64,000 nt of DNA from Escherichia coli (GCF_050320075.1 NZ_CP190018.1), one strand, 5' to 3'. Positions 30,518 to 53,170 are shown, counted from the stretch's first letter. Notes: generated by a model from the sequence alone, not told the origin. Program-made: numbers and translations.

Positions 30518-30528
30518 TTATCTTTTCC

Positions 30529-31413: not shown

Positions 31414-31426
31414 TGATTACTCCTGG

Positions 31427-33553: not shown

Positions 33554-33555
33554 GT

Positions 33556-34968
33556 TTACCAACCGGAGGATGAGGGAACGTATATTTCTGTTTCTTCGCG
33601 GACCAATGCCGGGCAATGCATACACATCATCAGCGCATCAGCCAGGTTAGGAGATGGAATACCGAGCTTCTGCTTCATTTCGACCTTAGTCATTAGCTCA
33701 AGCTTCCCGTTGTTATTGAATTTGCGCTGAATCTGCGTCAGTTCTGCAAACAGCTTCTCCAGCATCTTCTCGCCTATCGCTTCTTTGTCGAAGCTCAGCA
33801 TGTCGTCGGGGTCTGCATACTCACCGTGGACAACCGCCCGATATGTCAGATACAGCCTGTCAGCCAGCGCGTAATAGAATTGCGCTCGCTTATTGCGGAA
33901 TACATCGCCAATAGTGCGAACGTTGTCGCCCTGTACGACTTCATCAGCCCATGCTCCGGCCTGATAAGGCCCATCTTCATCGAATGGCGATTCGCTGCCC
34001 TTGAACATCGTGGCGGTAATTTTCTTGCCGGAGAATGCTTCCGTTGTCTGTCTGCGTAGCCCTGCACCGACACCATCGCCATCCCACAGGTAATGGTCAG
34101 CGCCGTCTTCAATCGCCAGCGAAGTAGCCCAGTCAGCACCCTCGTTGATGTCCATCAGCAGACCTTCGGCAATGCGCTTAACCACCGAACCGTGACGCGA
34201 TGCGTAACCTTTAGCATCTGGCCCTGTATCTGATGGATCATGTGCAGAGACAACAGCGCCTTTCGCTTTCCATCCGAGTTTCTTGTGCGCATCGGTTGCG
34301 GCTTCAAGCCATTCACGTTTGATGATTGCCATATCACTTGCGCTTACTGGCTCACCAAGCCAGATGTGACGATACAGTGTCGGGTTTCTGCGTTTACACT
34401 CTTCCATCTCCAGACGGAGAACTTCAGGAAAGTGCGGGTTGTCGGTGTAGTTCACCGTCAGCAGGCAAATATCATCTGGAGGATTTATGACGAATCGCTG
34501 ATAGGTATCGTCGAGAATGTTTTTCGGGTTAAAGCTCACCCATATTTCGGAAAACGGCTTGCGGATGGTTGGTATCAGGATATCCCATGATTCCTTCGTT
34601 ACCGCTTCCGCTTCCTCCACCCAGCAAATATCAATACCTTCTAGCGATTTAATCTTCGTCGGGTTGTTTTTGATGCCGTAGAACATGAATTCAGCATTCG
34701 TTCCGAGATGACGAATCATGGAACGCTGAATTTCAAACTCAGCCGAATAGCCTTCCCGCTCTATGGTGTCTTCAAGCAACCGGATTACCGAATCGCTGAT
34801 ACTGTTTTGCAGTTCACGAGCGCAGAGAATACGCACTGGCTGCCGACGCGCCGCTTCAACAAGCAGCCTCGCAATTGCCCATGACTTACCGCTACCTCGA
34901 CCGCCTTTGGCGACTTTGTAGCGATGCGCCTCAATGAACGGTTCAAAGATAGGATTAATCGAGGTCAT
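33556..34968 (-). CDS. Terminase large subunit
   Basis: 470 aa; Walker A 'GGRGSGKS'; follows small subunit. Confidence 0.9.
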   Translation of the reverse strand: MTSINPIFEPFIEAHRYKVAKGGRGSGKSWAIARLLVEAARRQPVRILCARELQNSISDSVIRLLEDTIEREGYSAEFEIQRSMIRHLGTNAEFMFYGIKNNPTKIKSLEGIDICWVEEAEAVTKESWDILIPTIRKPFSEIWVSFNPKNILDDTYQRFVINPPDDICLLTVNYTDNPHFPEVLRLEMEECKRRNPTLYRHIWLGEPVSASDMAIIKREWLEAATDAHKKLGWKAKGAVVSAHDPSDTGPDAKGYASRHGSVVKRIAEGLLMDINEGADWATSLAIEDGADHYLWDGDGVGAGLRRQTTEAFSGKKITATMFKGSESPFDEDGPYQAGAWADEVVQGDNVRTIGDVFRNKRAQFYYALADRLYLTYRAVVHGEYADPDDMLSFDKEAIGEKMLEKLFAELTQIQRKFNNNGKLELMTKVEMKQKLGIPSPNLADALMMCMHCPALVREETEIYVPSSSGW

Positions 34969-35405
34969 TTTCCGAATAGAGTGCTCATCGGTGATGTTTC
35001 AATCTGAATTGCGCCGCCGTCTTTGCCTGTTAGCTCGTGATCAACCTTGTCGCGCCATTTATCCTTCTGTCGGTTCTTAAGCCAGAAAATGGCAGCGGTT
35101 GTATCAGGCGGGTAATACTTCTCAAGCGGAGTTTCGACAATTCTGTTTTCAATAACACGAATATCGATATCTGGAGCCACGAAGCCCATAGCGCGTTGAT
35201 AAAGACGATCACTAACTTCTGCATCAGCGACGGCCTTACCCTTTTTTATGGACTCCGAAAACTTAGGATAATCAAGCTTCCACTTGTTAATAGTTGACTC
35301 ACTGACTTCAAAGAAATCAGCAAGTTCTGCATCGGTGTAGCCCAGCAAGCACAGTTTGCGTGCCTGTTCGGCATACGCCTCTTGATACTTTGTTGGGCGC
35401 GCCAT
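34965..35405 (-). CDS. Terminase small subunit
   Basis: 146 aa; HTH-like N-terminus; overlaps TerL start. Confidence 0.7.
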   Translation of the reverse strand: MARPTKYQEAYAEQARKLCLLGYTDAELADFFEVSESTINKWKLDYPKFSESIKKGKAVADAEVSDRLYQRAMGFVAPDIDIRVIENRIVETPLEKYYPPDTTAAIFWLKNRQKDKWRDKVDHELTGKDGGAIQIETSPMSTLFGK

Positions 35406-35890: not shown

Positions 35891-36421
35891 ATGGAAGTCG
35901 AAAAAATGCTGGTCAAGGACCGGAAGTGTGGCTCTTGCTCAGTTTGCTGTGTTTCTTTGGCAATAGATGAGCCCGAATTGAAAAAAAAGCATGCGGTACC
36001 GTGTACCTATCTCAGGCCTCAGGGTGGTTGCTCGATCTATGCTGATCGACCGTCATTGTGCAAAACATGGCACTGCGGATGGCGGATGATGCCTTTCATG
36101 GGGCCTGCGTTAAGACCAGATCGGTCCAATCTCCTAGTGCGCTTCACGGGAGAATGTTGGATTTTCGGTGATGCTGACGACCAAAGGGAATCTGCATTAA
36201 TGAATAATGATACTTTAAACGCAATGAGCGCTCTGGTCTCGCGTAATATGAAAGTTTCAGTATCAGTTCCAACTAAGCCGGGTTATTGCGACGCTGAACA
36301 TGTCATCAATGATGATATTATGGAGGCGGTAAAAGAACGGTCTTTGTCAAAAGTTAAAGAAATAATTTGGACAGTAATTTGCCGGTGCAAAGTCTCCGCG
36401 ACCAACCCGCGAAAGCAATAA
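35891..36421 (+). CDS. YkgJ-family cysteine-cluster protein (CxxCxxCC zinc/iron-binding) - opposite-strand moron
   Basis: 'CGSCSVCC...VPCTYLRPQGGCSIYADRPSLCKTWHCGW' fits the YkgJ/UPF0153 pattern; SD 'gaggtg' before ATG; AT-rich upstream. Confidence 0.55.
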   Translation: MEVEKMLVKDRKCGSCSVCCVSLAIDEPELKKKHAVPCTYLRPQGGCSIYADRPSLCKTWHCGWRMMPFMGPALRPDRSNLLVRFTGECWIFGDADDQRESALMNNDTLNAMSALVSRNMKVSVSVPTKPGYCDAEHVINDDIMEAVKERSLSKVKEIIWTVICRCKVSATNPRKQ

Positions 36422-36646: not shown

Positions 36647-36871
36647 TGTGAGTTCCAGACCTCAGACTAATTAATTTCAACCCCACTATTGCGAGGCTAA
36701 ATCCTGGTATTTGTAATGACTGGCTCTTATCTCAACGCAGCCCCTTACCGCGCGCAAGATGCTCAATATCAAGCATCAGCAATGAGATGTTTAATCTGGA
36801 TTCACTCCAGAAGTGATCACCACCCTGTCTACAGAGCCAGATGTGAAGGATGATGAGTAAAATTATCGCTA

Positions 36872-37309
36872 TCATCGAAGGCATTGCGTCCTGATGTACT
36901 CCTGCAGGTAGTTAACCTGCGCGGTTATCCTGTCGATTCCACTTCGGAGACGGTAATAATTGAGTTCAGCATCTGCTGTAAGTCTTGGGCTTTCTCCATC
37001 GCCCATGCTGCTGGCTCCGGTCGTTGACTTTGCACAGGTGGCGGCGACTTGCAGGCGTTTACGACCAGCAGAAACATCAGCACGGAGACTTTCGATAGTC
37101 GCGTTAGCATCAGCAAGCTCCTTTGTGTATCTGGCGTCGAGTTCTGCTACATCATGTTGCCGCTTCTGCATATCAGCGATAATAGATGTGGCTTTATCGC
37201 GCTGTTCTTTATAGGTAATGGCGTTATCACGGTAATGATTAACAGCCCATGACAGGCAGACGATGATGCAGATAACCAGAGCGGAGATAATCGCGGTTAC
37301 TCTGCTCAT
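36872..37309 (-). CDS. Rz: i-spanin Rz
   Basis: '[34 protein letters not shown]' near-identical to lambda Rz N-terminus. Confidence 0.9.
36925..37116 (-). CDS. Rz1: o-spanin Rz1 (embedded in +1 frame of Rz)
   Basis: Signal peptide + lipobox Cys + proline-rich '[17 protein letters not shown]' embedded in Rz. Confidence 0.7.
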
Positions 37310-37782
37310 ACCTCAATCTCTCTGACCGTTCCGCCAGCCTCTTTGAATTTTGCAATCAGGCTGTCAGCCTTATGCTCGAACTGACCATAACCAGCCCCCG
37401 GCAGTGAAGCCCAGATATTGCTGCAACGGTCGATAGCCTGACGGATATCACCGCGATCAATCATCGGCAAAGCGCCACGCTCCTTAATCTGCTGCAGCGC
37501 AACAGCGTCCTGGCTTTTGGGAGAGAAGTCTTTCAGTCCAAGCTGCTTGCGGTAAGCATCCCACCAACGGGAAAGAAGCTGGTAACGTCCGGCTGCTGTT
37601 GATTTGAGTTTTGGGTTTAGCGTGACAAGTTTGCGAGGGTGATCGGAGTAATCAGTGAATAGCTCTCCTCCTACAATGACGTCATAACCATGATTTCTGG
37701 TTTTCTGACGTCCGTTATCAGTTCCCTCTGACCACGCCAGCATATCGAGGAACGCCTTACGTTGATTATTGATTTCCACCAT
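37306..37782 (-). CDS. R: Endolysin R (lambda-type transglycosylase)
   Basis: 158 aa, near-identical to lambda R. Confidence 0.95.
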
Positions 37783-38089
37783 CTTCTACTCCGGCTTTTT
37801 TAGCAGCGAAGCGTTTGAGAAGCGAACCAATCGAGTCAGTACCGATGTAGCCGATGAACACGCTCGTTATATAAGCGAGATTGCTACTTAGTCCGGCGAA
37901 GTCGAGAAGGTCACGAATGAACCAGGCGATAATGGCGCACATCGTTGCGTCGATTACTGTTTTTGTAAACGCACCGCCATTATATCTGCCGCGAAGGTAC
38001 GCCATTGCAAACGCAAGGATTGCCCCGATGCCTTGTTCCTTTGCCGCGAGAATGGCGGCTAACAGGTCATGTTTTTCTGGCATCTTCAT
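37766..38089 (-). CDS. S: Holin S
   Basis: 107 aa '[41 protein letters not shown]' near-identical to lambda S. Confidence 0.95.
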
Positions 38090-38488
38090 GTCTTACCCCC
38101 AATAAGGGGATTTGCTCTATTTAATTAGGAATAAGGTCGATTACTGATAGAACAAATCCAGGCTACTGTGTTTAGTAATCAGATTTGTTCGTGACCGATA
38201 TGCACGGGCAAAACGGCAGGAGGTTGTTAGCGCGACCTCCTGCCACCCGCTTTCACGAAGATCATGTGTAGAAGGCCGCAGCGTAACTATCACTGATGAA
38301 TTCAGGATAGCCAGTGGCTACGGCTCAGTTTTGGTTGTGCTGTTGCTGGGCGGCGATGACGCCTGTACGCATTTGGTGATCCGGTTCTGCTTCCGGCATT
38401 CGCTTAATTCAGCACAACGATAAGAGCACTCGGTGCATTTAAGCCAAGCCCCATAAGGGAGAATGCTCTTACCTGTTGCACAGGTATA

Positions 38489-38513
38489 AAAAATCCCGAA
38501 ACCGTTATGCAGG
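38489..38513 (-). terminator. tR'-like terminator of pR' leader (6S RNA)
   Basis: Minus-strand 'gcctgcataacggtttcgggatttttta' matches lambda tR'. Confidence 0.75.
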
Positions 38514-38730
38514 CTCTAACTATTACCTGCGAACTGTTTCGGGATTGCATTTTGCAGACCTCTCAGCCTGCGATGGTTGGAGTTCCAGACGATACGTCGA
38601 AGTGACCAACTAGGCGGAATCGGTAGTAAGCGCCGCCTCTTTTTATCTCACTACCACAACGAGCGAATTAACCCATCGTTGGGTCAAATTTACCCAAGTT
38701 TATTCAAAAAGTCAATATTATGCCGTTAAT
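38514..38730 (-). promoter_or_regulatory. Late promoter pR' with qut site and 6S leader
   Basis: Minus-strand 'ttgactttttgaataaacttgggtaaatttgacccaacgatgggttaattcgctcgttgtggtagtgag' closely matches lambda pR'/qut. Confidence 0.7.
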
Positions 38731-38757
38731 ATGTTGCCATCCGTGGCAATCATGCTG

Positions 38758-39381
38758 CTAACGTGTGACCGTATTCAAAATGTTGTCTGCGATTGACTCT
38801 TCTTTGTGGCATTGCACCACCAGAGCGTCATACAGCGGCTTAACAGTGCGTGACCAGGTGGGTTGAGTAAGGTTTGGGATTAGCATCGTTACAGCGCGAT
38901 ATGCGGCGCTTGCTGGCATTCTTGAATAGCCGACACCTTTGCATCTTCCGCATTCTTTCTCAACAACTATCCCCCACAGCTCTGTTTTTGATATATCAAC
39001 CGCACGGCCTGTACCGTGGCAATCTCTGCATCTTGCGCCCGGCGTCGCGGCACTACGGCAATAATCCGCATAAGCGAATGTTGCGAGCACTTGCAGTACC
39101 TTTGCCTTAGTATTTCCTTCAAGCTTTGCAACGCCACGGTATTTCCCCGATACCTTGTGTGCAAACTGCATCAGATAGTTGATAGCCTTTTGTTTGTCGT
39201 TCTGGCTGAGTTCGTGCTTACCGCAAAATGCAGCCATTCCGAATCCGGCTTGTGATTGCGCCATCCCCATAGCAGCCATCACATCAGTACCGGAAAGAGA
39301 GTCAGAAGCCGTAGCCCGTGGTGAGTCACTCATCATCGGGCTTTTTGGCGAATGAAATTTAGCTACGCTTTCGAGTCTCAT
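38758..39381 (-). CDS. Q: Late antiterminator Q (lambda-type)
   Basis: 207 aa, near-identical to lambda Q including 'CRDCHGTGR...CGRCKG' zinc finger. Confidence 0.9.
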   Translation of the reverse strand: MRLESVAKFHSPKSPMMSDSPRATASDSLSGTDVMAAMGMAQSQAGFGMAAFCGKHELSQNDKQKAINYLMQFAHKVSGKYRGVAKLEGNTKAKVLQVLATFAYADYCRSAATPGARCRDCHGTGRAVDISKTELWGIVVEKECGRCKGVGYSRMPASAAYRAVTMLIPNLTQPTWSRTVKPLYDALVVQCHKEESIADNILNTVTR

Positions 39382-39566
39382 GGCCTTCCCCTTTTGCCCT
39401 GCTTGACCATCAGGACGCCGTTAACTATTACGTGACGCTCGCCTTTGCTGTCTCGGTTGTACTTGAGCACTGTTCCTCTTGCGCAGGAAAGCATCCTTGC
39501 CACTTCGGTCTGATTGCCTCGTGTCTGGATAAGAAGCTCTGGTATCGTTTGAATTGTGGCGTTCAT
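39378..39566 (-). CDS. Small hypothetical nin-region protein (62 aa)
   Basis: Overlaps rusA stop and Q start. Confidence 0.45.
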   Translation of the reverse strand: MNATIQTIPELLIQTRGNQTEVARMLSCARGTVLKYNRDSKGERHVIVNGVLMVKQGKRGRP

Positions 39567-39925
39567 GCGTTCTCCAGTTCGGTGATTTTTATTCCAAGCC
39601 TTCCGCCTGGTACTTTCACGCCACGAATTACGCGAATGTCATCGAATTGCTCGTCGTCTTCCGCAAATCCGGCGTGGATAAGGGAGTCGAGTAAACCTTT
39701 CAGGATGTTGTCGAGGTCGCGACGGCGGGAGTCCGGAACATCTACGATGACTTTGATGCGGAGTCGTGATTTGGTGAAAATGTCTAACTTAAGTTGGCGG
39801 ATGATTTGCTGAACGTCTTTTCGGTATTTCTGGCCTTTATCGCTGATGTAGTATTGGCTTCCCCGTCTTCGCCAGTAGGTGTTCAGCGACGGCGGGTATG
39901 GAAGCACAAACTGATATTCGTTCAT
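39563..39925 (-). CDS. rusA: Holliday junction resolvase RusA
   Basis: 120 aa 'MNEYQFVLPYPPSLNTYW...' RusA signature. Confidence 0.85.
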   Translation of the reverse strand: MNEYQFVLPYPPSLNTYWRRRGSQYYISDKGQKYRKDVQQIIRQLKLDIFTKSRLRIKVIVDVPDSRRRDLDNILKGLLDSLIHAGFAEDDEQFDDIRVIRGVKVPGGRLGIKITELENA

Positions 39926-40212
39926 GACTTAATCTTCCCCTCCTTCAGCAGTATCGCCTGCGTCCTGATAACGCCTTCGAGGTGGTAAAGTCTGGTGTCT
40001 TTGTTGTCGAGGTTATGGGTGCGTCGGTCGATTTCATCGTGACACGCGCTACAAGCCCATGCGCCGATCAGGTCGTCAGGCTTCATTCCCGTTCCGCAAA
40101 TTCCAGCCATCCGGTAATGTGCCAGAACTGTAGTTTCAGGATTGCCATTGCATATGCCGTAAATACGTACCTGGCATTCTCTGCCGCGCGCTTCTTTGCG
40201 TAGATTAGCCAT
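39922..40212 (-). CDS. DUF1364/YbcO-like Cys-rich nin-region protein (putative nuclease)
   Basis: 96 aa with multiple Cys/His 'CQVRIYGICNG...CSACHDE'. Confidence 0.55.
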   Translation of the reverse strand: MANLRKEARGRECQVRIYGICNGNPETTVLAHYRMAGICGTGMKPDDLIGAWACSACHDEIDRRTHNLDNKDTRLYHLEGVIRTQAILLKEGKIKS

Positions 40213-40934
40213 TAAGCAGCCTCACCTGTTACTTTCAGCATTCCGTTATCGAGCAGCTTTCTGGTCAGCCACTGTTGACCACGCCCGGTGATTTTTGTGG
40301 TGAACGATATCTGTATTCCGTGATTTGTGTTGACCGCTGTTTCTTTCACTGTGAAATAGCCGCGATCCATATATTCCTGCATTGGCACATTGCGCCGGGA
40401 ACCTGAAGCAATAAGGATTTTGTGATCGCGCATCCACGCAAACAGTTTGTTTGGACCAATACCGACAACTTTTGCAAAGTTTCCAATCAAAATTCCGCTG
40501 GCCTCGCCAACGCGATCGGCAAACTCAACTTTAGGTGCGGCAATTGCGAGCTGGTTTTCCAGTTGCATTTTCTGCTCAGCAAGATCAGCAGCAAGGCGCA
40601 ACGCTTCTGGTAGCGTTTTGGGGATATTAACCGCAGCTTCTTCAAGCTCTCGCCAACGGTCAACAAGGCGAGCGGTGAACTCTGGCGACAACTGGGCAAC
40701 AACGACAATACTATCTCGCTTACCTTGTTCGCCTTCGAAGACGTAATGCTCGTACTGAACATTGAACCCTAAGTTATTGATTCTTTCGAAAACCTCAATT
40801 TGAGGAAGCCGGATAACACCATTTTTAGCCAGCGTTTCGATGGTACGCTTCACATTGTCATGACGCTTACCAACCAACTCAGCGATTTCAATGCTTGTCA
40901 TTTTGATGGCATTGCCATTTATTAACTCATTCAT
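40212..40934 (-). CDS. Rha-family phage regulatory/antirepressor-like protein
   Basis: 240 aa; N-terminal 'MTSIEIAELVGKRHDNVKRTIETL' Rha-type motif. Confidence 0.6.
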   Translation of the reverse strand: MNELINGNAIKMTSIEIAELVGKRHDNVKRTIETLAKNGVIRLPQIEVFERINNLGFNVQYEHYVFEGEQGKRDSIVVVAQLSPEFTARLVDRWRELEEAAVNIPKTLPEALRLAADLAEQKMQLENQLAIAAPKVEFADRVGEASGILIGNFAKVVGIGPNKLFAWMRDHKILIASGSRRNVPMQEYMDRGYFTVKETAVNTNHGIQISFTTKITGRGQQWLTRKLLDNGMLKVTGEAA

Positions 40935-41097
40935 CGTCTTCTTCCTCGTACATTGAACTATTCGGATCGCTCATCAGTTCTGCGCAGCAATCGGAGCACA
41001 CGTGAACTTCCAGCACATGCAGCTTCTGACCGCAGTTAGCGCACGTTAAAGCCCGCTCGACGCTTTCTTGTTCGTAACTTCGATTTGGGTCAATCAC
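40927..41097 (-). CDS. ninF: NinF-like protein (GTG start, not in ORF track)
   Basis: 56-aa frame '[56 protein letters not shown]' nearly identical to lambda NinF; GTGA overlap with ninE stop. Confidence 0.55.
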
Positions 41098-41276
41098 CTT
41101 GTTTTCCTCGCACGTTCTCTAAGCCACCGGATATCCCACAGGTGAGCCGTGTAGTTGAAGGTTTTTACGTCAGATTCTTTTGGGATTGGCTTGCGTTTAT
41201 TTCTGGAGCGTTTCGTTGGAAGGTATTTGCAGTTTTCGCAGATTATGTCGGTGATGCTTCGTCGCTGTCGTCTCAT
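41094..41276 (-). CDS. ninE: NinE-like protein
   Basis: 60 aa basic protein in ninE position. Confidence 0.5.
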
Positions 41277-41683
41277 TCGTACCTCCTGTCGGTAAATCTG
41301 ACACCCTTACCAATAGCCCATGCTGTCGTGTACTCAATCAGACTTGCCATACGCTTCACGCTCATCTGTGCGCTGCTCTCACGAATGTTGACGTATTCGC
41401 CTTCAAGCCCGGGCAAAACATCAGCTTCCTGCTTTGTCGCCACTGCATGACCGCTTATCAACAAAACCTTCCATTGTTCTGGTTTTAACCATTTATCGCA
41501 CCATTGAACCTGACGTGCGATATCCGCCAGCATCGCGTGAAATTTTGCGTTCTGGTCAAGGTTGCGCTTGTAGTCAGTAATGCGGATGGTGACTGGCTTG
41601 TCTTTATCGAGTGGTGTTGCGAGGATGGCATTTATTGCAGCTTGCTGTTGTTGCTTAGTTCGGAGGAAGATTGTTTGCTTCAC
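41273..41683 (-). CDS. ninB: NinB recombination protein
   Basis: 136 aa '[21 protein letters not shown]...' NinB/Orf family. Confidence 0.75.
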
Positions 41684-41694
41684 TGAATACTCCT

Positions 41695-41886
41695 TTATTT
41701 TTTATGCCTGTAACCCCATTCTTCCAGCAACCTTGCGGCGTACCACCCAAGAAACAAAGGAAAGAACATTACAATGAGATATTCCCCGCCACGGTCAATG
41801 TTCGAAATTGACCAGATTACGATGTAACCAGTGCAGGACAGGAATATTACAAACCCCAAAAAGCTACTTCGTCGACTCATGCTCAC
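41695..41886 (-). CDS. Small membrane protein (63 aa), hypothetical
   Basis: Hydrophobic ORF between replication and nin genes. Confidence 0.4.
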   Translation of the reverse strand: MSMSRRSSFLGFVIFLSCTGYIVIWSISNIDRGGEYLIVMFFPLFLGWYAARLLEEWGYRHKK

Positions 41887-42158
41887 TCCTTCACTTTTAT
41901 TCCAGCAGCGCGGATGTTTTCCTCATAAGCATCCATTGCATCACCGAAGCCATTGGAATAATCAACAGTAAACCCTTTGGCTAATGCTTCTCTGCTGTCG
42001 ATAAACTTTGGCGCGGTTATTTCAATAGCTGCGCGAGATGCCTGCCATGCCCTCCATGCCATTTCCGTGGATGAATAAACATACCCGCAATCACCATATG
42101 CAAGGCTTAAATTTTGCTTTTTCGCGAACTCCAAAAACTGCTTTCTTGATTCGTCCAT
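41883..42158 (-). CDS. Hypothetical protein (91 aa)
   Basis: ORF overlapping neighbours by 4 nt. Confidence 0.45.
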   Translation of the reverse strand: MDESRKQFLEFAKKQNLSLAYGDCGYVYSSTEMAWRAWQASRAAIEITAPKFIDSREALAKGFTVDYSNGFGDAMDAYEENIRAAGIKVKE

Positions 42159-42175
42159 CGATACTTACCCTCAGT

Positions 42176-42382
42176 TCAACTAACAAAACGCCACGCCATT
42201 TTTGCTACGACAACAGGCATAACACCGATAATCACCCAGACAAATGCAGCGCCAAACAACGTATACCATGGGTCTTTACCGTCATTCACAAGACGAATGT
42301 AGCTATGCAGAACAATAAAAAACGTCAGAAGAATCCATCCAACGCCAACGCATTTGCATGCGACGAGCATAAACTCAGCCAC
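42176..42382 (-). CDS. Small membrane protein (68 aa), hypothetical
   Basis: Two predicted TM helices. Confidence 0.4.
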   Translation of the reverse strand: MAEFMLVACKCVGVGWILLTFFIVLHSYIRLVNDGKDPWYTLFGAAFVWVIIGVMPVVVAKMAWRFVS

Positions 42383-42399
42383 GATTTACTCTCCCCCAA

Positions 42400-42429
42400 A
42401 TAAAAAGGCCTGCGATTACCAGCAGGCCT
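42400..42429 (-). terminator. Rho-independent terminator after primase/helicase gene
   Basis: Stem aggcctgc/gcaggcct with T-run on minus strand. Confidence 0.55.
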
Positions 42430-42458
42430 GTTATTAGCTCAGTGATGTAGATGGTCAT

Positions 42459-44339
42459 TTAATACTCCGTCACGTTTTCCTGTCGCCACGCCTCGTCATA
42501 TTCCGATTTCGGCATATTGGCGATGTAGCTATATGGCGATCCTGATTCAAGTTGCAGGAACTGGTGCGATTGCTCGTCAAGGAACAACGGGACACCACCT
42601 TCCCAACCTTCGCCGTTACGTTGCTTTTCAAGCATCAAAACAGATGCCGGAGATGCCAGTAGCTGTTCGTCCTTCTCTGACATCCTTTCACCACTCTGAA
42701 CTCTCTGTAACGCTCTCTCGCGAGCCTTGTTACGCCAGATGATGAAAAGGTTGTCTGTCAGGTCTGTTATCGCTCCAGAGCCTTTTACGTCCATTTTCCC
42801 GGTTGGTTTTTCTTCGCTGTCACCTTTTCGCGAGTGAGTAACGAGAATGACGTGGGAGTTTGTTTTGTTTTTGAAATCGCAAATCGAGTCAACAAACGCC
42901 TTCTGCCCGTTATAGTCATCGTCGCCTATGCCACATTTCATCAGGCTGTCGATGATGAATAACTGGATGCCGTATCGGCGGCGAGCGTAGTCGAATATTT
43001 CGATCAGCCTGTCGGCTTTCGCCGTTCCGGTCAGACCAAACACCCAAAGTCTTTCGTCATAAAATTTAAATGCAGAGTCAATTTCCAGCACTGGCGGCAT
43101 CTTGCAGCACGTCGCCTGACGGGTAAGTCGTTTAAGGAGAATGCCTGGCTTCAGCTCAAGTGACGCGATGCACGTCTTCACACCCTGACGCATTGCCTCA
43201 AGTGCCATATGCCCGACAACCTCCGTTTTTCCGTGACCGTTCACACCATTGACCAGCGTCAACTCGGCCTCACGGAACTGGAATTTATCTGCCAGAGATT
43301 CCCACGGTGGATTAAACAGATACTGCTGCTTGCCGTAGAAAGCGTTGATAGTGTCCTGGTAAAACTCTCGCGCGCTGTAGAGTTCTTCAGGATCGAAGTA
43401 GGATGCCGTGCCGATGTACTGCCAGATTTCATCCTCGGTAACACCGTTCATCAGGCATTCGTTGATGTCTTTGTACGGCAGAGTAACAAGACGGCAACGA
43501 TGTTCACCGAGTCGGCTTGCGATTTCCCTTGCGGCTTCACGACCAACATCATCAACGTCCATCGAGATGAATATTTCCTCAAACCTGTCGAGGTTGTGAT
43601 ACTCAAACTCAATCCACTGTTGCTTAGCGCCTTTCCCGCCACCAAACGGCACGGATAACGCCGAGATGCCGTATTGCGCATAGCTCATACAATCAATTTC
43701 GCCTTCGCAAAGTACAACCGCCCTCACGCCAGCGTCCAGAGCCTGCCATCCGAACAGACAAGGTTCGCAATCACCCTCTGCCATAATGACTTTCTTCCCG
43801 TCCGGGCGCTCAGTGCTGATTCGCTTGACCTGCAACAACTCACCATCGCGTTTGTACGGAAGCACCAGTGCATCAAGTTCTCGTTCTCCATTCCACACCT
43901 TGCCGCTGACAACCTCGTAGCGCTTTACGACTTCTGGCGATATGCCACGCGATTGCAGGTACTCAAGATGGGATTCTGTTCTGGTAACGTAGCGGGCGAT
44001 TTTCTTGCGGTCAGGTCTGGAGAATTTCTTCTCACGTTTGGCATCGAAATGGTGATCGTCATCCTTGATTCCGAGAAAGGCTTTCGCTTCCTGCATAGCC
44101 TGATGCAGGTTAATTCCACGACATGCCATCCACAAATCAAGCATGTCACCGCCGTCTCCCTCAGCGAAATCAGCCCATTTTTTCTTGCCGCTAAGGTTGA
44201 CCTTAAGGCTGTTTCCCTTGTCACCGTTGACGTTACCGGCAACCCACTCATGCCCCTCTTTCTTGCCGTTTGGCAACAGGTGCGGAGCCACCCTGTCAAC
44301 CTGCGCCCAAAGCAGGTCGCTAAGTTCACTTGGCGTCAT
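42459..44339 (-). CDS. Replicative primase/helicase (Toprim-like N-region + DnaB/RepA-type ATPase)
   Basis: 626 aa; Walker A 'GVNGHGKT'; occupies the lambda P position after O-like gene. Confidence 0.7.
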   Translation of the reverse strand: MTPSELSDLLWAQVDRVAPHLLPNGKKEGHEWVAGNVNGDKGNSLKVNLSGKKKWADFAEGDGGDMLDLWMACRGINLHQAMQEAKAFLGIKDDDHHFDAKREKKFSRPDRKKIARYVTRTESHLEYLQSRGISPEVVKRYEVVSGKVWNGERELDALVLPYKRDGELLQVKRISTERPDGKKVIMAEGDCEPCLFGWQALDAGVRAVVLCEGEIDCMSYAQYGISALSVPFGGGKGAKQQWIEFEYHNLDRFEEIFISMDVDDVGREAAREIASRLGEHRCRLVTLPYKDINECLMNGVTEDEIWQYIGTASYFDPEELYSAREFYQDTINAFYGKQQYLFNPPWESLADKFQFREAELTLVNGVNGHGKTEVVGHMALEAMRQGVKTCIASLELKPGILLKRLTRQATCCKMPPVLEIDSAFKFYDERLWVFGLTGTAKADRLIEIFDYARRRYGIQLFIIDSLMKCGIGDDDYNGQKAFVDSICDFKNKTNSHVILVTHSRKGDSEEKPTGKMDVKGSGAITDLTDNLFIIWRNKARERALQRVQSGERMSEKDEQLLASPASVLMLEKQRNGEGWEGGVPLFLDEQSHQFLQLESGSPYSYIANMPKSEYDEAWRQENVTEY

Positions 44340-44446
44340 GATTCCCTCAGATTGAGATTTTTAAACCAGAAATCGACAAACGAAATACTTAACCAGCCGT
44401 GGTTATAACCAGCGACCAGTAGCGATTTGATTTTTGATTTCATGGT

Positions 44447-45307
44447 TCACCTGTCGAAAAACACGTAGCCAGTTTTCGATACGGTGATTGCGGATGGTGG
44501 TTTGGATTGTGGTTGAATGGTTTCTGGCTTTTCGTCGTTCCAGCGCTGACCGTTCAGGTAGCTCGATGGTAACAACCTGTCGAATCCGAACTGCTTACCA
44601 TTCCTGCATGCGATGTCTTCTGCCAGCATCGTGGCAAACTCGCTTGCCGTACCCCTTGTAGTTTTACGCCATTCCCTGAACTGTGTTCTGAATGCCGAAG
44701 CCGCGTTTTTCTTCCCGGCTTTCCGCATGCCTGCACACCAGAATATTTCCTCGAATGCCTTGTCGGTTTCTTCGTGACGGTCAGGTGATTTTTCACACTC
44801 CGTCCGAACACTTTCGGACATAGTGTTTTTATTATTTCTTTTTTCTTTTGTAATAGTTTCTTTTGTGTGTCCCTGTTTTGGTGACAGCGCTGTCACCGTT
44901 TTGGTGACACTTTTTGTCACCAATGCAGTGACATTATCACCAGAGTAGTGACACCCTTCGATTTGCCATTCCTCGATGTTCTTGTTAGGCCCGATTTGCT
45001 GGCCTTCGCGAAGGATTACCTTCATCGCGATAAGCTCATTCTTGGCCTTGTTTACCTTCTGTCTTGGCAGCCTGGTAATTTGAGCTAACTGACTATCAGA
45101 GATGCGATCCATCTTTTTACCGTAGCCGTATGTTTTACGGCATATGGCGTGGGCAACCTTGCTCTGATTTTTCGTTAAATCTGCGCCGATAAGCTCTTCA
45201 TACAGGGCATTTGCAAGACGGGTATAACCATCTTCAACTTCTGCCACACGACGCTCCACAGGCCGTTGTGAAGACCTTAAATGTGTTACGGTTGCAAGAT
45301 TACTCAT
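44447..45307 (-). CDS. Replication initiator (lambda O-like N-terminal domain)
   Basis: '[21 protein letters not shown]...[18 protein letters not shown]...GPNKNI' parallels lambda O N-domain; iterons inside gene. Confidence 0.65.
44876..44956. repeat. Origin iterons (GGTGACA/TGTCACC repeats) inside O-like gene with adjacent AT-rich tract
   Basis: 'ggtgacagcgctgtcaccgttttggtgacactttttgtcaccaatgcagtgacattatcacc' preceded by T-rich 44830-44870. Confidence 0.6.
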
Positions 45308-45480
45308 GACCTTTCTCCTTCTGCATCAGCTTCACTTTTTCCAACTCAGCCCGGAATCGACCAGGCTGCTTGAAGCTGGACAGGAAGCGATCACGTAGTA
45401 TGTGTTTGTGAATTTTGTCCTGGTAAGGACTGAGTTGTTTTGTCATAATTACTTCTGTGGATTGATCCAGTCTTTCTACA

Positions 45481-45762
45481 TCAGGCCTCGAAGAATTCGC
45501 CGTTCTTCGGGGCTTTTTCTTTTGTCAGGTAATCGGCAAGCCGCTTAGTCAATTCAGCCATTTCATCGTCTTCGATTCCGTATTCCAGAACAGCAAGCAT
45601 CATGCTTACCTGCGAGAAGAAACCATTCTTCCATCGGCTTACCTGATATTCAGGAACCCCCATTGCTCGAGCGAATGTCTTCTGCCCCATCAGTGCCAGT
45701 TTGTTCAGCAAGGCTGACTCGATGCGAGCCGCTTTCTTGCTTTTAGTTGCAATAGTACCCAT
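45481..45762 (-). CDS. cII: CII-like transcriptional activator
   Basis: '[14 protein letters not shown]...VSRWK...MLAVLEYGI' parallels lambda CII. Confidence 0.7.
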
Positions 45763-45838
45763 AGATAATTTCCTTAATGATTAGATAGAGTTGGCTTCGC
45801 AAAGAAACGCAAAACCATAGAGATTTGTTTCTGGTAAT

Positions 45839-45853
45839 GCCCTTTTTCAGGGC
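45839..45853 (-). promoter_or_regulatory. nutR boxB hairpin
   Basis: Minus-strand 'gccctgaaaaagggc' identical to lambda nutR boxB, between cro and cII. Confidence 0.75.
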
Positions 45854-45878
45854 TGTGATGTGTAAGAGCTAGAATGTC

Positions 45879-46094
45879 TTAAGCGGCTTTGCGTTCCGGC
45901 GGGAACACGTCATCAAGACTGACTTTTGCGCCTAACTTGTTTAGGCACTCAACAAGAGCACGGCATGTTTTAAGGTCTGGGAAGCGACGACCAGATTCCC
46001 AATGTCCGATAGCTCCCTGTGTGCATCCAACTGCCTTAGCAAGTGTTGTTTGAGAGATATTCAGTGACTCTCGATATTTTCGTAGGTTGCTCAT
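45879..46094 (-). CDS. cro: Cro-like HTH repressor
   Basis: 71 aa from internal ATG with SD 'ggaggg'; XRE-type HTH 'ISQTTLAKAVGCTQGAIGHWESG'; divergent from cI. Confidence 0.65.
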   Translation of the reverse strand: MSNLRKYRESLNISQTTLAKAVGCTQGAIGHWESGRRFPDLKTCRALVECLNKLGAKVSLDDVFPPERKAA

Positions 46095-46205
46095 ATGCCC
46101 TCCATAGTAACCATGAAACAATAATACGATATGTACTTTTAGAATGCAAACAAAAAATACATCTTGTGCGTGGATGATTTTAGTACAGAGCGTAATAATA
46201 AGGGT
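46095..46205. promoter_or_regulatory. Divergent immunity control region (oR/pR/pRM equivalent)
   Basis: 110-bp AT-rich spacer between divergent cro and cI starts. Confidence 0.5.
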
Positions 46206-46865
46206 ATGAAAATGAAATGGTATGAACTGGCTAGATCCAGAATGAAAGAGCTCGGCATAACTCAAGAGAAGTTAGCTGAAGAGCTTGGTATGACGCAGGG
46301 TGGAATTGGTCACTGGTTGCGCGGATCTCGTCATCCATCTCTTGACGAGATTGGTGTGGTGTTTAAATACCTTGGTATTGATAACGTCTCATTCAACCAC
46401 GACGGTACATTTTCACCTGTTGGCGAATACTCATCTGCCCCCGTTAAAAAACAATATGAGTACCCTGTTTTTTCTCATGTTCAGGCCGGGATGTTCTCGC
46501 CTGAGCTTAGAACCTTTACCAAAGGTGATGCGGAGAGATGGGTCAGCACAACCAAAAAAGCCAGTGATTGTGCGTTCTGGCTTGAAGTTGAAGGTAATTC
46601 CATGACCGCGCCAACAGGATCCAAGCCAAGCTTTCCTGACGGGATGTTAATTCTCGTTGACCCTGAGCAGGCTGTTGAGCCAGGTGATTTCTGCATAGCC
46701 AGACTTGGTGGTGACGAGTTTACCTTCAAGAAGCTGATCAGGGATAGCGGGCAGGTGTTCCTACAGCCACTAAACCCGCAATATCCAATGATTCCATGCA
46801 ATGATAGCTGTTCCGTAGTAGGGAAAGTTATCGCCAGCCAGTGGCCTGAAGAGACATTTAGTTAA
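46206..46865 (+). CDS. cI: CI-type prophage repressor (HTH + S24 LexA-like autopeptidase)
   Basis: XRE HTH '[23 protein letters not shown]'; C-terminal 'GNSM...FKKL' Ser/Lys dyad context. Confidence 0.8.
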
Positions 46866-46990
46866 CAGCCTCACAACTCTAAAACACACATCAATAACCC
46901 GACCTTAGCGTCGGGTTTTCTTTTTCCAAAATATAAACCCATTAAATACAAAGCGTTATAAAAAACTAATTATATTTAGAACATTTTGTA

Positions 46991-47019
46991 TTGACTCGAT
47001 AAAGTACAAATCGTACTAT
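46991..47019 (+). promoter_or_regulatory. pL-like promoter with overlapping palindromic operator
   Basis: -35 'ttgact', 17-bp spacer with palindrome 'agtacaaatcgtact', -10 'tactat'. Confidence 0.55.
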
Positions 47020-47057
47020 TTAGCCATCAGCAGGACGCACTAACCACCATGAAGGTG

Positions 47058-47089
47058 ATGCTCTTAAAAATTTAGCCCTGAAGAAGGGC
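47058..47089 (+). promoter_or_regulatory. nutL (boxA + boxB)
   Basis: 'gctcttaaaaatttagccctgaagaagggc' matches lambda nutL; boxB 47075-47089. Confidence 0.8.
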
Positions 47090-47199
47090 AGCATTCAAAG
47101 CAGAAAGCTTTGAGTAGCGCGAAATGCAGCTGCAAGACAGCAACCGTGGAGATAAGCATCACGGCGCGTTACTCAAAGCTAACTGACAGGAGAATCCAG

Positions 47200-47526
47200 A
47201 TGAATGCACAAACACGCCGCCGCGAACGTCGCGCAGAGAAACAGGCTCAATGGAAAGCAGCAAATCCCCTGTTGGTTGGGGTAAGCGCAAAACCAGTTAA
47301 CCGCCCAATTCTCTCGCTGAATCGCAAACCGAAATCACGAGTAGAAAGCGCACTGAATCCGATAGACCTTACGGTGCTGGCTGAATACCACGAACAGATT
47401 GAAAGCAACCTGCAACGTATTGAGCGCAAGAATCAGCGCACATGGTACAGCAAGCCACGCAGTGAAATGGGTGTGACTTGTGTTGGTCGCCAGAAAATGA
47501 AATTAGGCAGCAAACCACTTATTTGA
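47200..47526 (+). CDS. N: Antitermination protein N (lambda-type)
   Basis: 'MNAQTRRRERRAEKQAQWKAANPLLVGVSAKPVNRP...' near-identical to lambda N. Confidence 0.9.
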   Translation: MNAQTRRRERRAEKQAQWKAANPLLVGVSAKPVNRPILSLNRKPKSRVESALNPIDLTVLAEYHEQIESNLQRIERKNQRTWYSKPRSEMGVTCVGRQKMKLGSKPLI

Positions 47527-47534
47527 GGTGAGAT

Positions 47535-47786
47535 ATGGAGTTTCATGAAAGTGCGATTTGTGATTTTCGCGCTAACGCAAATTCAGTAAAACCACAGCCA
47601 ATTGCAGTTCTTTTTAAAACAATGGGGGCGTGGGCTGTTTTATGCTTCGCCGCTGACGACACTGACGCAAGAATGGCAATAGGCCAAGAGATGGAGATGG
47701 ACCCGACAAACGATGAATTCATAATTTATGGCGCTCCATCTAATTACTTACTTGATACCTGCAACATTTACAACAAGGCTGCCTGA
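47535..47786 (+). CDS. Hypothetical early-left protein (83 aa)
   Basis: ORF immediately after N. Confidence 0.45.
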   Translation: MEFHESAICDFRANANSVKPQPIAVLFKTMGAWAVLCFAADDTDARMAIGQEMEMDPTNDEFIIYGAPSNYLLDTCNIYNKAA

Positions 47787-50648: not shown

Positions 50649-51728
50649 ATGAGCACTATCACTAAAGAACGTATCGAATTGTTCATTAAATCCCCGCTTG
50701 AAAACGGGCTTACCCGTGGCGAACAAATGGAACTGGCACGAATTGCACTGGCATCACTGGAACGCGAACAGATTCGCCACGAGCATGCCAAATGGTCTGA
50801 CTCCACATTTGGCTGCGTTGGCCCCATTGGTCCACTGAAACACCTCTCAAAAGAGGCACTGGAAGCCGCAGCCGAACCAGACGATCTTAGCGAGTGGGCT
50901 GATATGCAGTTTCTGTTGTGGGATGCACAGCGCCGTGCTGGCATCAGCGATGCTGAAATTACCGCTGCTATGGAAGATAAATTGAAGATCAACATGGAGC
51001 GCCAGTGGCCTGAACCAAAAGATGGTGAGCCTCGCTTGCACATTAAAGAACCCGGCAACTCTCCGGTAATTCCGGATGGTTTATCCACGGTATGCGCTGA
51101 GGCTTATCAGGTTGTAGGAGTTATGGCAGATGCGCTTGGTGTATTCGGTGATGCAGCAGTACAGAAAGTTCTGGATAACCTGTCACAGCAAAAACTTGTT
51201 CACAGAGATGTGCTGCCGTTCTCGCTTCCGGTGACTCCGGATGGTTGGATAAGCTGTAGTGAGCGAATGCCTGTAATTGGCGAGCTAAATTGGAGAACTA
51301 GTTTTCCTTTACTGGTTACGTGTGAGATCGGCGTTATACCTGCTTATTACGGCTTTGTGAGCGTTAATGGTGATAGGCATTATGGCTTTATGGAGAGTCT
51401 TAAATACGGAGACGATAACGGCAACCATCCTCAAACTAATGAATATGGTCTGATTAGCAATGTCACACACTGGATGCCACTACCAGAACGCCGCAGGAGT
51501 CGAACAGTGAATAATGCAGAGTTATTTCAGAAAATTTCGGCTCTCGCGACTGAATGCCACGCTATAGCATCTGAGCTTGATGTTGGCGATGAACGAACCG
51601 AGATGTTCGAAATATACAGTGTGCTGCGCAATCTCTGTCGGCGTGGCTACGCCACTCAAGTAGGGCGAATGACTAACCCACTACTCTCATTCTGTGATGA
51701 GGATGACTCGGATGAGGATGACGAATGA
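50649..51728 (+). CDS. Hypothetical early protein (359 aa), acidic C-terminal tail
   Basis: Large ea-region-type ORF; possible DUF550/DUF551-like prophage domains (unverified recall). Confidence 0.5.
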   Translation: MSTITKERIELFIKSPLENGLTRGEQMELARIALASLEREQIRHEHAKWSDSTFGCVGPIGPLKHLSKEALEAAAEPDDLSEWADMQFLLWDAQRRAGISDAEITAAMEDKLKINMERQWPEPKDGEPRLHIKEPGNSPVIPDGLSTVCAEAYQVVGVMADALGVFGDAAVQKVLDNLSQQKLVHRDVLPFSLPVTPDGWISCSERMPVIGELNWRTSFPLLVTCEIGVIPAYYGFVSVNGDRHYGFMESLKYGDDNGNHPQTNEYGLISNVTHWMPLPERRRSRTVNNAELFQKISALATECHAIASELDVGDERTEMFEIYSVLRNLCRRGYATQVGRMTNPLLSFCDEDDSDEDDE

Positions 51729-52108
51729 TGCATAAATCAGTAGCCGGTGAGTTTCAGAAGGAAGTCGATAATACCACTGATCTATTGGACGATATTTTAA
51801 GCATTCTCGCGCTGCTTGAGGCTGGCGATTGGTCAGAACATTGCACTAAAACAGAGCTAGGCGGTCGGCTTGAAAGAGAGATTACACGACTGATTAGCGA
51901 TGCCCAAAATGATTTGTCACCTGAGCATCTCCCCTGCGATGTAGTTCTTGTGCCAGGGATGAGGATACACGAAGGCGTCAGAACGAAAACATTATTAACC
52001 GCATTACAGAGGAGAGCCGAACTAAGCTCGCGGATAAAGTTGATGCCATCCAAAATATTTGATGTCGTCAAATTTACGCCATCGCAACATACTGAGAGAG
52101 ATAAATGA
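51725..52108 (+). CDS. Hypothetical early protein (127 aa)
   Basis: ATGA-coupled ORF. Confidence 0.45.
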   Translation: MMHKSVAGEFQKEVDNTTDLLDDILSILALLEAGDWSEHCTKTELGGRLEREITRLISDAQNDLSPEHLPCDVVLVPGMRIHEGVRTKTLLTALQRRAELSSRIKLMPSKIFDVVKFTPSQHTERDK

Positions 52109-52731
52109 GCACGGTAGCGAACGATCTCACAGAAGATATTCTCAATGAAATTATTGCTGGTGCAAATACCTCGCTTGAGCAACTTCTTGCGTTAGCACTG
52201 AGAGCCGAACGTCGAGACAGAAATCGTTTTTATGAGCGATTACCAGGGAAGCGACCAGATAGATCGGATGAAGAAGGTTGCGATATAGACTACATGGAGC
52301 CTTCAGAGATTTATCAACTTGGTAAAGATGACGGCTGGAACGCTTATCACGATGCTGTGATGAAGTTGGATGAAAAAGTTAAACCTCTTTCTCGACCGGT
52401 AGATCACGGTTTCCGCGATAACTGCGAATGCTCTAGTTGCCAGACCACGACCCGTATTTGTTCCGAATTGACAGATAAGTCCAGCCTAATCTACGAAGTT
52501 AATGTAGGCGGTAATACATGGGTCGAATGCACAAGAGCTGCATACGTAAGAGCAAAAGACAAGGGTGAATTAACCAGAGTTGTTACCAATCACCCAAATA
52601 ATGAGCTTAAAGATCACCAGATTCGAGAACTGGTGAACGAGTTGAGAGATATTGCGGTTCAGTACCACGGAACGCAGCAATTGCGGGAGAAGATTGCCAG
52701 AGCAGTGAACAACTCAGTCCGTAAAAAATAA
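52105..52731 (+). CDS. Hypothetical early protein (208 aa) with Cys cluster
   Basis: 'CECSSCQ...C...C' cluster; last gene before hairpin. Confidence 0.45.
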   Translation: MSTVANDLTEDILNEIIAGANTSLEQLLALALRAERRDRNRFYERLPGKRPDRSDEEGCDIDYMEPSEIYQLGKDDGWNAYHDAVMKLDEKVKPLSRPVDHGFRDNCECSSCQTTTRICSELTDKSSLIYEVNVGGNTWVECTRAAYVRAKDKGELTRVVTNHPNNELKDHQIRELVNELRDIAVQYHGTQQLREKIARAVNNSVRKK

Positions 52732-52748
52732 GCAATAGTACGATAAAG

Positions 52749-52773
52749 AGGCCCCATGCTCTTGATGGGGCCT
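52749..52773. terminator. Hairpin (candidate bidirectional terminator)
   Basis: Stem aggcccca/tggggcct with 9-nt loop after 208-aa gene. Confidence 0.4.
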
Positions 52774-53170
52774 GTAGCAACTAGCGTTATGGACGCTGGT
52801 TTACGTACTCAATGATCGCTTTGATAATCGCGAACATCGGCGGCACGATTTTGAACAGTAAGTTAACCATAACAGGCCTCACTTAGTTTTATCGCGCCTA
52901 GCTGCAAATACCTTTGGGCTTGCCTTTGCAGTTGCAATATCTGTAGTCGCCAGATACTTACGGCACGATTTCGAGTTAAGGTAAGGTTTTAGAGTCACCA
53001 AAAACCTGGACTTAAATCTTCTTTGAGAACAACGATGTTTAGTAAATGGTCATTATTACCTGGTATGACCACTCAACGTTTCTTGATGAATCCAGTACAT
53101 TCGGTTAATCTTAATTCAGTCGCCAGATACTTATGGCTCAGGAACAGAGCCGCAAACTCTGTTTCCTTTT

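Follow-up and report, generated by a model that had tools for sequence, protein, structure and literature searches.

Gene content and extent of the prophage

The 64,000-nucleotide stretch of Escherichia coli DNA analysed here (NZ_CP190018.1, GCF_050320075.1; hereafter the window) contains, at positions 16896-55715, an element of ~38.8 kb inserted in the tRNA-Thr gene thrW. We are highly confident that this element is a single, apparently complete P22-like temperate prophage (Lederbergvirus, Sf6 virion type) and that, as judged by alignment, it is mosaic, its modules differing in their nearest relatives, with no single reference phage matching it uniformly. The region under study, 37306-47526, corresponds to the early, regulatory and lysis portion of this intact-looking prophage, and its features are listed in Table 1 together with those of its surroundings. 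A preliminary description had proposed for this region lambda-identical regulatory and lysis cassettes joined to a non-lambda replication module and a P22/Sf6 virion module.

One copy of a 47-bp repeat (55716-55762, attL, beside int) overlaps the 3' part of thrW, which adjoins proA; this repeat therefore sets the limits of the prophage and its integration site. The virion genes, Rz/Rz1, R, S, Q, the nin region, a toprim/DnaB-type gene, O, cII and cro follow one another on the minus strand, and cI, N, the early-left genes, xis and int on the plus strand, as derived from the map of open reading frames (ORFs), Pfam and the RefSeq annotation of the identical locus. This is the canonical order of a lambdoid temperate phage (int-xis...N-cI-cro-cII-O-helicase/loader-nin-Q-S R Rz-virion) with divergent pL and pR flanking the repressor gene, and the gene set between the one att pair is complete and without duplicated functions. 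Erf and Abc2 are also encoded by the prophage according to the RefSeq annotation. In an Rfam scan of 16000-56500 at gathering thresholds, the tRNA was the sole match.

The segment 37306-47526 was found as a 100% identical, collinear stretch in the chromosomes of three complete RefSeq E. coli genomes (YZLc1-3, Ec-U3 and SB0258h1), and at least 80% of it is present in 12 E. coli genomes. It could be asked whether the element is an assembly chimera, or two adjacent remnants, one lambda-like and one P22-like, that were taken as one, since thrW here does carry tandem elements, with a P4-like satellite and an older island beside the prophage. We give this explanation almost no chance, because the three genomes sharing the 10.2-kb segment were assembled independently, because one att pair brackets the whole 38.8 kb with its complete gene set, and because in the isolated phages 720R6, mEp043 and Sf101 long collinear parts span the supposed joints.

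Table 1. Features of the thrW prophage and of the adjoining satellite (window coordinates; aa, amino acids; nt, nucleotides).
Feature	Position	Strand	Description and evidence
attR, virion end of prophage	16849-16895	none	47-bp exact direct repeat of 55716-55762; common to the adjoining P4-like satellite
Sf6-type virion assembly block	21401-34968	-	gp16, 20, 7, 14, 26, 10, 4, coat, scaffold, portal, TerL; nt and aa identity to Sf6
Small terminase TerS	34965-35405	-	Type unlike Sf6/HK620 (33% aa to their TerS); 94-98% nt to 611R6/720R6
Cys-rich ORF, 176-190 aa	35849-36421	+	Opposite to the late operon; between lysis genes and DUF2560/TerS genes
Rz i-spanin, hybrid gene	36872-37309	-	5' ~39 codons lambda-type, remainder P22/Sf6-type
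Rz1 o-spanin, 61 aa, P22/Sf6-type	36925-37110	-	100% Sf6, 93% P22, 39% lambda
R endolysin, lambda-type transglycosylase	37306-37782	-	98.7% aa to lambda, 100% to HK620
S holin/antiholin	37766-38089	-	98.1% aa to lambda, 99.1% to Sf6
Late control region	38486-38715	-	pR' 38687-38715, qut/pause element 38654-38680, tR' 6S terminator 38486-38543; alignment with lambda, HK620, P22; exact string positions; promoter scan TTGACT-17-TAAATT
Q late antiterminator, lambda specificity type	38758-39381	-	98.6% aa lambda, 95.7% P22, 19% Sf6; Pfam Antiterm 3.8e-58
nin region, HK620-type	39378-41683	-	ninH, rusA, ybcO, roi/ant, ninF, ninE, short ninB; nt and aa identities; Pfam
ninA/tR2 conserved linker, 70-84 nt	42375-42458	-	Terminator hairpin 42406-42429 (terminator scan); Sf6 'bsq6'
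Bifunctional primase-helicase, 626 aa, T7 gp4/Twinkle-like	42459-44339	-	At lambda P position; Toprim_2 residues 209-296, AAA_25/DnaB_C 355-594 (Pfam)
O-type initiator with internal origin	44447-45307	-	Phage_rep_O, residues 20-114 (Pfam)
DUF2740 small ORF and conserved linker upstream of O	45300-45480	-	89-100% identical to HK620, P22, Sf6, mEp043, 720R6; Sf6 'bsq5'
cII-type activator, mEp043 allele	45481-45762	-	Pfam Phage_CII; 98-100% nt to mEp043; 44% aa to lambda
nutR	45839-45870	-	boxA AGCTCTTA, boxB GCCCTGAAAAAGGGC; boxB 45839-45853 exact lambda
Cro, Nil2/VT2-Sakai immunity type	45879-46094	-	97.2% aa to Nil2 Cro, 28% to lambda; HTH_3
CI repressor	46212-46865	+	Nil2-type HTH N-domain and lambda-type S24 C-domain (46452-46865); 96.8% aa to Nil2 CI; Pfam HTH_3 and Peptidase_S24
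cI terminator and OL/pL	46896-47019	+	Terminator 46896-46917; OL/pL TTGACT-17-TACTAT 46991-47019; terminator and promoter scans, dyads; identical to 720R6
nutL	47059-47089	+	boxA TGCTCTTA, boxB GCCCTGAAGAAGGGC; boxB 47075-47089 exact lambda
Short N-leader variant, 61 nt	47113-47173	+	From nutL to the N ribosome-binding site; alignment
N early antiterminator, lambda specificity type	47200-47526	+	97/108 aa identical to the 107-aa lambda N; Pfam N36 1.7e-25
Integrase, SfX/HK542 type, thrW specificity	54542-55702	+	96-98% nt to HK542 int region
tRNA-Thr, thrW, CGT anticodon	55717-55792	-	ARAGORN; Rfam tRNA 71.8 bits; RefSeq annotation
Satellite alpha primase-helicase	7143-9476		
Satellite ogr/delta	12775-13275		
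Satellite psu	13349-13921		
Satellite integrase	15480-16685		
Satellite icd-like and ash genes			

Segment-wise comparison with reference phages

The prophage was compared in 100-bp bins with lambda, P22, Sf6, HK620, 720R6 (vB_EcoP-720R6), mEp043 and Nil2, and in 500-bp bins with 611R6 and HK542 added. The share of the prophage that is at least 90% identical to a reference was 8% for lambda, 6% for P22, 40% for Sf6, 36% for HK620, 20% for HK542 and 43% for 611R6, the best full-genome reference, and the union of all nine came to 80%. None of 50,697 phage records covers at least 80% of 37306-47526; the best, 720R6, covers 75%. Uniform similarity to one reference phage, which would speak against mosaicism, was thus not seen, and the mosaic interpretation stands.

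Along the prophage, identity switches sharply, from more than 95% to no detectable match within a few bases at gene ends, and neighbouring segments differ in their nearest relative. The suggestion that the module junctions are recombination breakpoints fits these sharp switches, which lie at gene ends or in conserved regulatory elements. As an indicative statistic, 13 of the 25 junctions in 36700-47600 are within 10 nucleotides of the end of a coding sequence, compared with a background of 6.6% (binomial P ~1e-9). The gene-end junctions include the Q start, the ninH stop, ybcO/roi, roi/ninF, ninE/ninB, the primase-helicase stop, the O start and the cro and cI stops. The remaining ones lie either at domain hinges or in short elements that otherwise unrelated phages have in common: the ninA/tR2 patch, the stretch from the pL transcript start through nutL, a conserved patch inside Rz, the cI hinge at 46455, and the 3' edge of the nutR boxB, where 720R6/Sf6-like sequence gives way to mEp043-like sequence over a few bases. 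At matching places, namely tL2A, the cII/orf42 junction, ninA/tR2 and inside Rz, the RefSeq record of Sf6 carries 'boundary sequences' bsq4-bsq7; a full-text literature search for 'boundary sequences' combined with further terms found no paper, and these sites rest on the Sf6 RefSeq annotation.

In principle, recombination might not be needed to explain such patches of similarity, if genes inherited vertically were under unequal selective constraint, and short regulatory elements (boxB, tR2 and the pL transcript start) are indeed conserved in all lambdoid phages. However, constraint fits poorly with the fall of identity within a few bases and with the different nearest relatives of neighbouring segments. 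It also fits poorly with corresponding positions being taken by non-homologous proteins (a primase-helicase or P, a Nil2-type or a lambda helix-turn-helix domain, and the coats of Sf6 and P22 with 21% identity) and with the informative sites of Rz, which switch parent once. We therefore regard this explanation as extremely improbable.

Comparable architectures have been reported: the early operons of P22-like phages were described as 'highly mosaic', with a lambda-type Q 99% identical to lambda Q and, in epsilon34, ES18-type replication genes (PMC2629481), and Sf101 was likewise described as mosaic (PMC4159516). Between temperate lambdoid genomes a mean of 2.4 mosaics per pair was found, with a median length of 404 bp and 96% identity; about one third of them have traces of flanking homology, and Red-beta- and Erf-type recombinases work on short, diverged sequence (PMC3945230).

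Lysis cassette and late control region

The preliminary description held N, the nut boxB sequences, Q, pR'/tR', S, R and Rz/Rz1 to be almost identical to those of lambda. This is so for the Q, S and R proteins (98-99% amino-acid identity), but nucleotide identity to lambda ranges from 88 to 99% per feature, and the other lambdoid phages Sf6, HK620, HK542, mEp043 and 720R6 match equally or better. S and R are lambda-type as described, with nucleotide identities of 98.8% and 95.4%. The spanin genes are not: the amino-acid identity of Rz rises from 58% (lambda) through 90% (P22) to 99% (Sf6), and Rz1, which lies wholly within Rz in the +1 frame as an embedded two-component spanin, is likewise of the P22/Sf6 allele. 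The sites in Rz that distinguish lambda from P22 are in the lambda state down to 37217 and in the P22 state from 37206 on, which amounts to a single clean crossover between these two positions. This switch corresponds to bsq7 of Sf6, and the lysis cassette including the hybrid Rz/Rz1 is already present in Sf6 (96.9% nucleotide identity).

The assignment of Q and pR'/tR' to the lambda type was confirmed. The Q gene is 96.6% identical to lambda in nucleotide sequence, and the -35 and -10 hexamers of pR', the AACGAT pause element and the tR' hairpin are the same as in lambda, so that the late antitermination specificity is, on sequence grounds, that of lambda Q/qut. The spacer of pR' has two substitutions relative to lambda, at positions where HK620 and P22 also depart from it. 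The Q-S intergenic region is 92.8% identical to lambda overall, with a patch of ~40 nucleotides downstream of tR' replaced.

The region 38658-41682 is 96.1% identical to HK620 in nucleotide sequence, and lambda matches in 40932-41269 only; within the nin region, ninE-ninF is the only part common to lambda. The ninA/tR2 linker that follows is 92-98% identical to lambda, P22, Sf6, HK620, mEp043, 720R6 and Nil2, whereas both of its flanks are unrelated among these references.

Immunity region, N and nut sites

The cI/cro pair is of a known immunity type, Nil2/VT2-Sakai. The expectation of a non-lambda repressor and Cro was right for Cro and for the DNA-binding domain of CI, which cannot be aligned with that of lambda CI, but the C-terminal domain of CI is lambda-like (92% nucleotide and ~97% amino-acid identity). 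From cro through OR to the 5' part of cI, VT2-Sakai and many Stx phages match at 94% identity, and the P22-like isolates 683R2, Dewey and 720R6 at 99%. A search of the literature on the Nil2 repressor gave nothing directly useful.

The exact lambda boxB occurs twice, against 0.02 matches expected by chance, and the boxA before each copy has at most one change. The arginine-rich motif of N (residues 1-22) is that of lambda except for D2N, and the C-terminus of N diverges. Together with boxA, the motif and the exact boxB of both nut sites define the lambda type of N/nut antitermination specificity as far as sequence can define it. Both boxB hairpins are thus exact and the N protein is 90% identical to that of lambda, while nucleotide identity is 88.4% for the N gene and 59% for the surroundings of nutR. 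nutR is a junction too: the immunity module, of the 720R6 type, meets there the cII-replication module of the mEp043 type. The leader between nutL and N is 61 nucleotides long here, compared with 109 in lambda and ~220 in Sf6, mEp043 and 720R6, while both flanks are conserved; this short variant was found in 170 of 5426 complete E. coli genomes.

The lambda-type Q, S and R and the two exact boxB sequences raise the question of whether lambda itself was the donor of the regulatory and lysis cassettes, in a direct and recent cross with an Sf6-like phage that gave rise to the prophage. The ~320 bp between tR' and S, for which lambda was the sole match in a first panel of six phages, also speak for such a cross. 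Nevertheless, the individual features have 88-97% nucleotide identity to lambda and not a value near 100%, the Rz breakpoint and the lysis cassette exist already in Sf6, and lambda covers only 8% of the prophage. In the alignments, lambda is not the closest phage for nearly any of the 'lambda' segments, for which HK542, mEp043, Sf6 and 720R6 are equal or closer. We consider a lambda donor very improbable, and rejected it, like the chimera and the differential-constraint explanations.

Replication module and cII

An O-like N-terminal domain with in-gene iterons, followed by a primase/helicase instead of P, had been predicted for the replication module, and the Phage_rep_O domain, four iterons and Toprim and DnaB_C domains were all confirmed. 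Residues 1-157 of O are 49% identical to lambda O, and the C-terminal domain is unrelated. The O gene contains four dyad iterons of 19-20 nucleotides (44868-44953; TGTCACC...GGTGACA type), whose sequence differs from that of the lambda iterons, and an adjoining AT-rich tract (44820-44866) that is near-identical to the tract of the lambda ori. The module is thus not of the lambda O + P type: no P homologue was found, and the gene downstream of O combines Toprim and DnaB_C domains.

The product of this gene matches T7 gp4 chains (E=2.7e-23, residues 191-539) and Twinkle (6.6e-14) and belongs to phrog_239 'DNA primase/helicase'. Its N-terminal Toprim domain and C-terminal DnaB-family helicase domain place it among the SF4 primase-helicases of the T7 gp4/Twinkle type. 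From cII through O to the primase-helicase (42389-45887), the sequence is 98.7% identical to mEp043 at the nucleotide level. A TTGCN6TTGC site lies at 45799-45812 and accompanies the cII-type activator gene. In epsilon34, the replication gene region was described as resembling that of ES18 and as coding for a putative helicase and an origin-binding protein homologous to O (PMC2629481), and the epsilon34 genome also matches the replication region of the window.

Virion block and integration module

The morphogenesis block had been called P22/Sf6-type. It is Sf6-type, with 97.4% nucleotide identity to Sf6 over 10.5 kb (24590-35053) and 97.4% to HK620 over 26914-35053, but not P22-type: amino-acid identities to Sf6 and P22 are 100% and 21% for the coat protein, 100% and 20% for TerL, and 99% and 33% for the portal. 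The genes form the collinear cluster 3, 2, 1, 8, 5, 4, 10, 26, 14, 7, 20, 16, 9 with coat, portal and terminase of the Sf6 subtype of Lederbergvirus. At its edges the block is mosaic in turn, in TerS, in gp20 and gp16 (61% and 76% amino-acid identity to Sf6) and in the tailspike, which is 31-36% identical to those of Sf6, HK620 and P22 and whose DNA is 100% identical to 611R6.

At the other end of the prophage, the integrase resembles that of HK542, whose attP is annotated as thrW-like and which is a siphovirus with an HK022/HK97-type virion. An int/att module 96-98% identical to that of a siphovirus indicates that the integration module is common to different virion types. Near attR, two pieces (17024-17092 and 17643-17818) are 85% identical to lambda 27473-27708, a region just left of the attP core in which the int 1 and int 2 binding sites are annotated. 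These pieces resemble the remains of a lambda-type att arm. Both lie between attR and an O-acetyltransferase gene, with ~550 bp between them that hold a fragment of a tail-fibre gene and a small ORF. Matches to this part of the window were also seen in 611R6, Gally and Sf101.

Accessory ORFs and neighbouring elements

Several ORFs lie beside the junctions. For the Cys-rich ORF, phrog_9155 (unknown function) was the sole match, with none in Pfam, PADLOC or NCBIfam (35891-36421), and 35752-36680 matches none of the nine reference phages. Two small ORFs lie between ninB and tR2 (41883-42382) and an 83-aa ORF follows N. These ORFs might be morons, with superinfection exclusion or anti-defence as a new function, and the 61-nucleotide leader might, separately, alter the RNase III/N autoregulation known from lambda; taken together, we think this unlikely. 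All of these ORFs and the short leader recur in other E. coli prophages.

In the 'ea' region close to int, an unannotated gap of ~800 bp (52731-53533) is followed by a gene on the plus strand (53533-53922) for a 129-aa S24 peptidase without a helix-turn-helix domain, of the HumD family and UmuD'-like as in phage P1 (NCBIfam NF051876, 219.8 bits versus a cutoff of 120). The 2.8 kb at 51240-54024, this gap included, are 97-99% identical to the ~108-kb records Cyrano, CMS-2020a and PhiR41_1. An exchange with phage-plasmids was considered for this segment and withdrawn, as these records show lambdoid ea genes beside chromosomal mrp and metG.

Next to the prophage, in tandem and with the same thrW att repeat, lies a P4-like satellite (6700-16895) whose GC fraction is 0.55-0.61 at 7-13 kb. 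Between its psu and int genes is a 461-aa protein (14123-15508) that RefSeq annotates as HEPN-domain; Pfam, PADLOC and NCBIfam gave no match, and it could be an uncharacterised cargo gene, possibly for defence. Upstream of the satellite is the remnant of an older island (257-6637) with a toxin-antitoxin pair, AbiEii/AbiEi (257-1946), a UG5-nitrilase-class defence-associated reverse transcriptase of 1069 aa (2262-5471; PADLOC PDLC03780, 1034 bits) and an integrase fragment (6434-6637), the last within a stretch (6479-6667) 79% identical in nucleotide sequence to the 3' end of P22 int through attP. Island remnant, satellite and prophage together make thrW a triple integration hotspot here.

Origin of the mosaic and relation to known phages

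The picture of three parents centred on lambda is too simple and partly wrong. According to the alignments, the nin region, the immunity region, cII and the replication genes each have a nearest relative of their own, and individual phages resemble the prophage in some modules and differ in others. Sf6 and HK620 have the same gene order and 97-100% identical virion assembly genes, Sf6 nearly the same lysis cassette and HK620 the same nin region (96%), and the junctions coincide with the boundary sequences of Sf6. Compared with these two phages, however, the prophage has Nil2-type immunity, another O, a primase-helicase instead of a DnaB-like P, a thrW/SfX-type integrase and att, and a different TerS, tailspike body and portions of gp20/gp16; its Q is lambda-type, whereas that of Sf6 is of the phage-21 type with tRNA genes.

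720R6 shares the region from cro through cI to OL (99-100% nucleotide identity), the replication module, N and the lysis genes, but has a phage-21/Sf6-type Q with tRNAs, another cII and another middle of the nin region. mEp043 c-1 shares cII through the primase-helicase, Q, the lysis genes and N, but has another immunity region and a siphovirus virion (Aguilavirus); each of these two phages covers at most 75% of 37306-47526. Nil2 and VT2-Sakai are alike in immunity only, including the lambda-like CI C-terminal domain of that group, and differ in everything outside cro-cI, having O with a DnaB analogue and a different virion; the prophage lacks stx.

Lambda itself shares the specificity types of N/nut and Q/qut, S and R, ninE and ninF, the C-terminal (RecA-cleavage/oligomerisation) domain of cI and the layout of ori, with four iterons and the AT-rich tract inside O. 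It differs in the operators, the N-terminal domain of cI, Cro, cII and Rz1, in O and the iteron sequence, in having P, in integrase and att, and in all virion genes, which are unrelated.

We propose that the early, regulatory and lysis genes were assembled from alleles circulating in the lambdoid gene pool. These are Nil2/VT2-Sakai-type cI, cro and operators; N of lambda specificity and the nutL and nutR that match it; cII, O and primase-helicase of the mEp043/ES18 type; an HK620-type nin region; Q of lambda specificity with pR'/qut/tR'; lambda-type S and R; and an Sf6-type hybrid Rz/Rz1. N was inherited with both exact boxB hairpins, which flank the heterologous immunity region. Likewise, Q is paired with pR'/qut/tR', the N-terminal domain of O with the iterons and its C-terminal domain with the primase-helicase, the N-terminal domain of cI and Cro with OR and OL, and the periplasmic C-terminus of Rz with Rz1, both Sf6-type. 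As trans-acting factors thus travel with their own cis-acting sites or partners, the patchwork should work as an ordinary lambdoid circuit. CI, with an intact lambda-type S24 domain, would be RecA-cleavable; early antitermination would depend on N and late transcription on Q; lysis would proceed by holin, endolysin and spanin; and replication is predicted to be independent of a P-type DnaB loader.

The patchwork most probably arose by recombination between co-resident lambdoid phages or prophages, mostly long before this lineage. Some exchanges would have been homologous, at short conserved linkers such as nutR, tR2/ninA, pL-nutL, the Rz patch and the ninE-ninF island, and were probably helped by phage single-strand annealing proteins, for example the prophage's own Erf. 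Others, to judge from the junction positions and the published model, would be non-homologous joins that survived only at gene or domain boundaries. Because most junctions are common to Sf6, HK620, Nil2 and others, they are probably older than this lineage, and we see in them fossils of many separate exchanges and not of one cross between lambda and a P22-like phage.

Three points weigh against reading too much into this account. The junction list was curated by hand against a panel of nine references, three of them partial loci, which makes the junction statistics indicative only; the homologous or illegitimate origin of an individual junction cannot be told from its sequence; and the functionality of the prophage, that is, its inducibility, immunity specificity and N and Q specificity, is inferred. 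Nothing that we found contradicts the view of the element as a mosaic prophage.

The mosaicism is real but ordinary: it is well documented and textbook for lambdoid phages, the same sequence, without any difference, can already be found in public, annotated genomes, and the element is probably a routine new recombinant within Lederbergvirus. Its import beyond correct annotation is small, as a clean and well-resolved example of lambdoid mosaicism. For annotation, the repressor is best labelled as Nil2/VT2-Sakai immunity, the spanins as P22/Sf6-type and the virion as Sf6-type, and 'lambda-like' labels on prophage genes should be understood as shared alleles of a common pool, not as descent from lambda.

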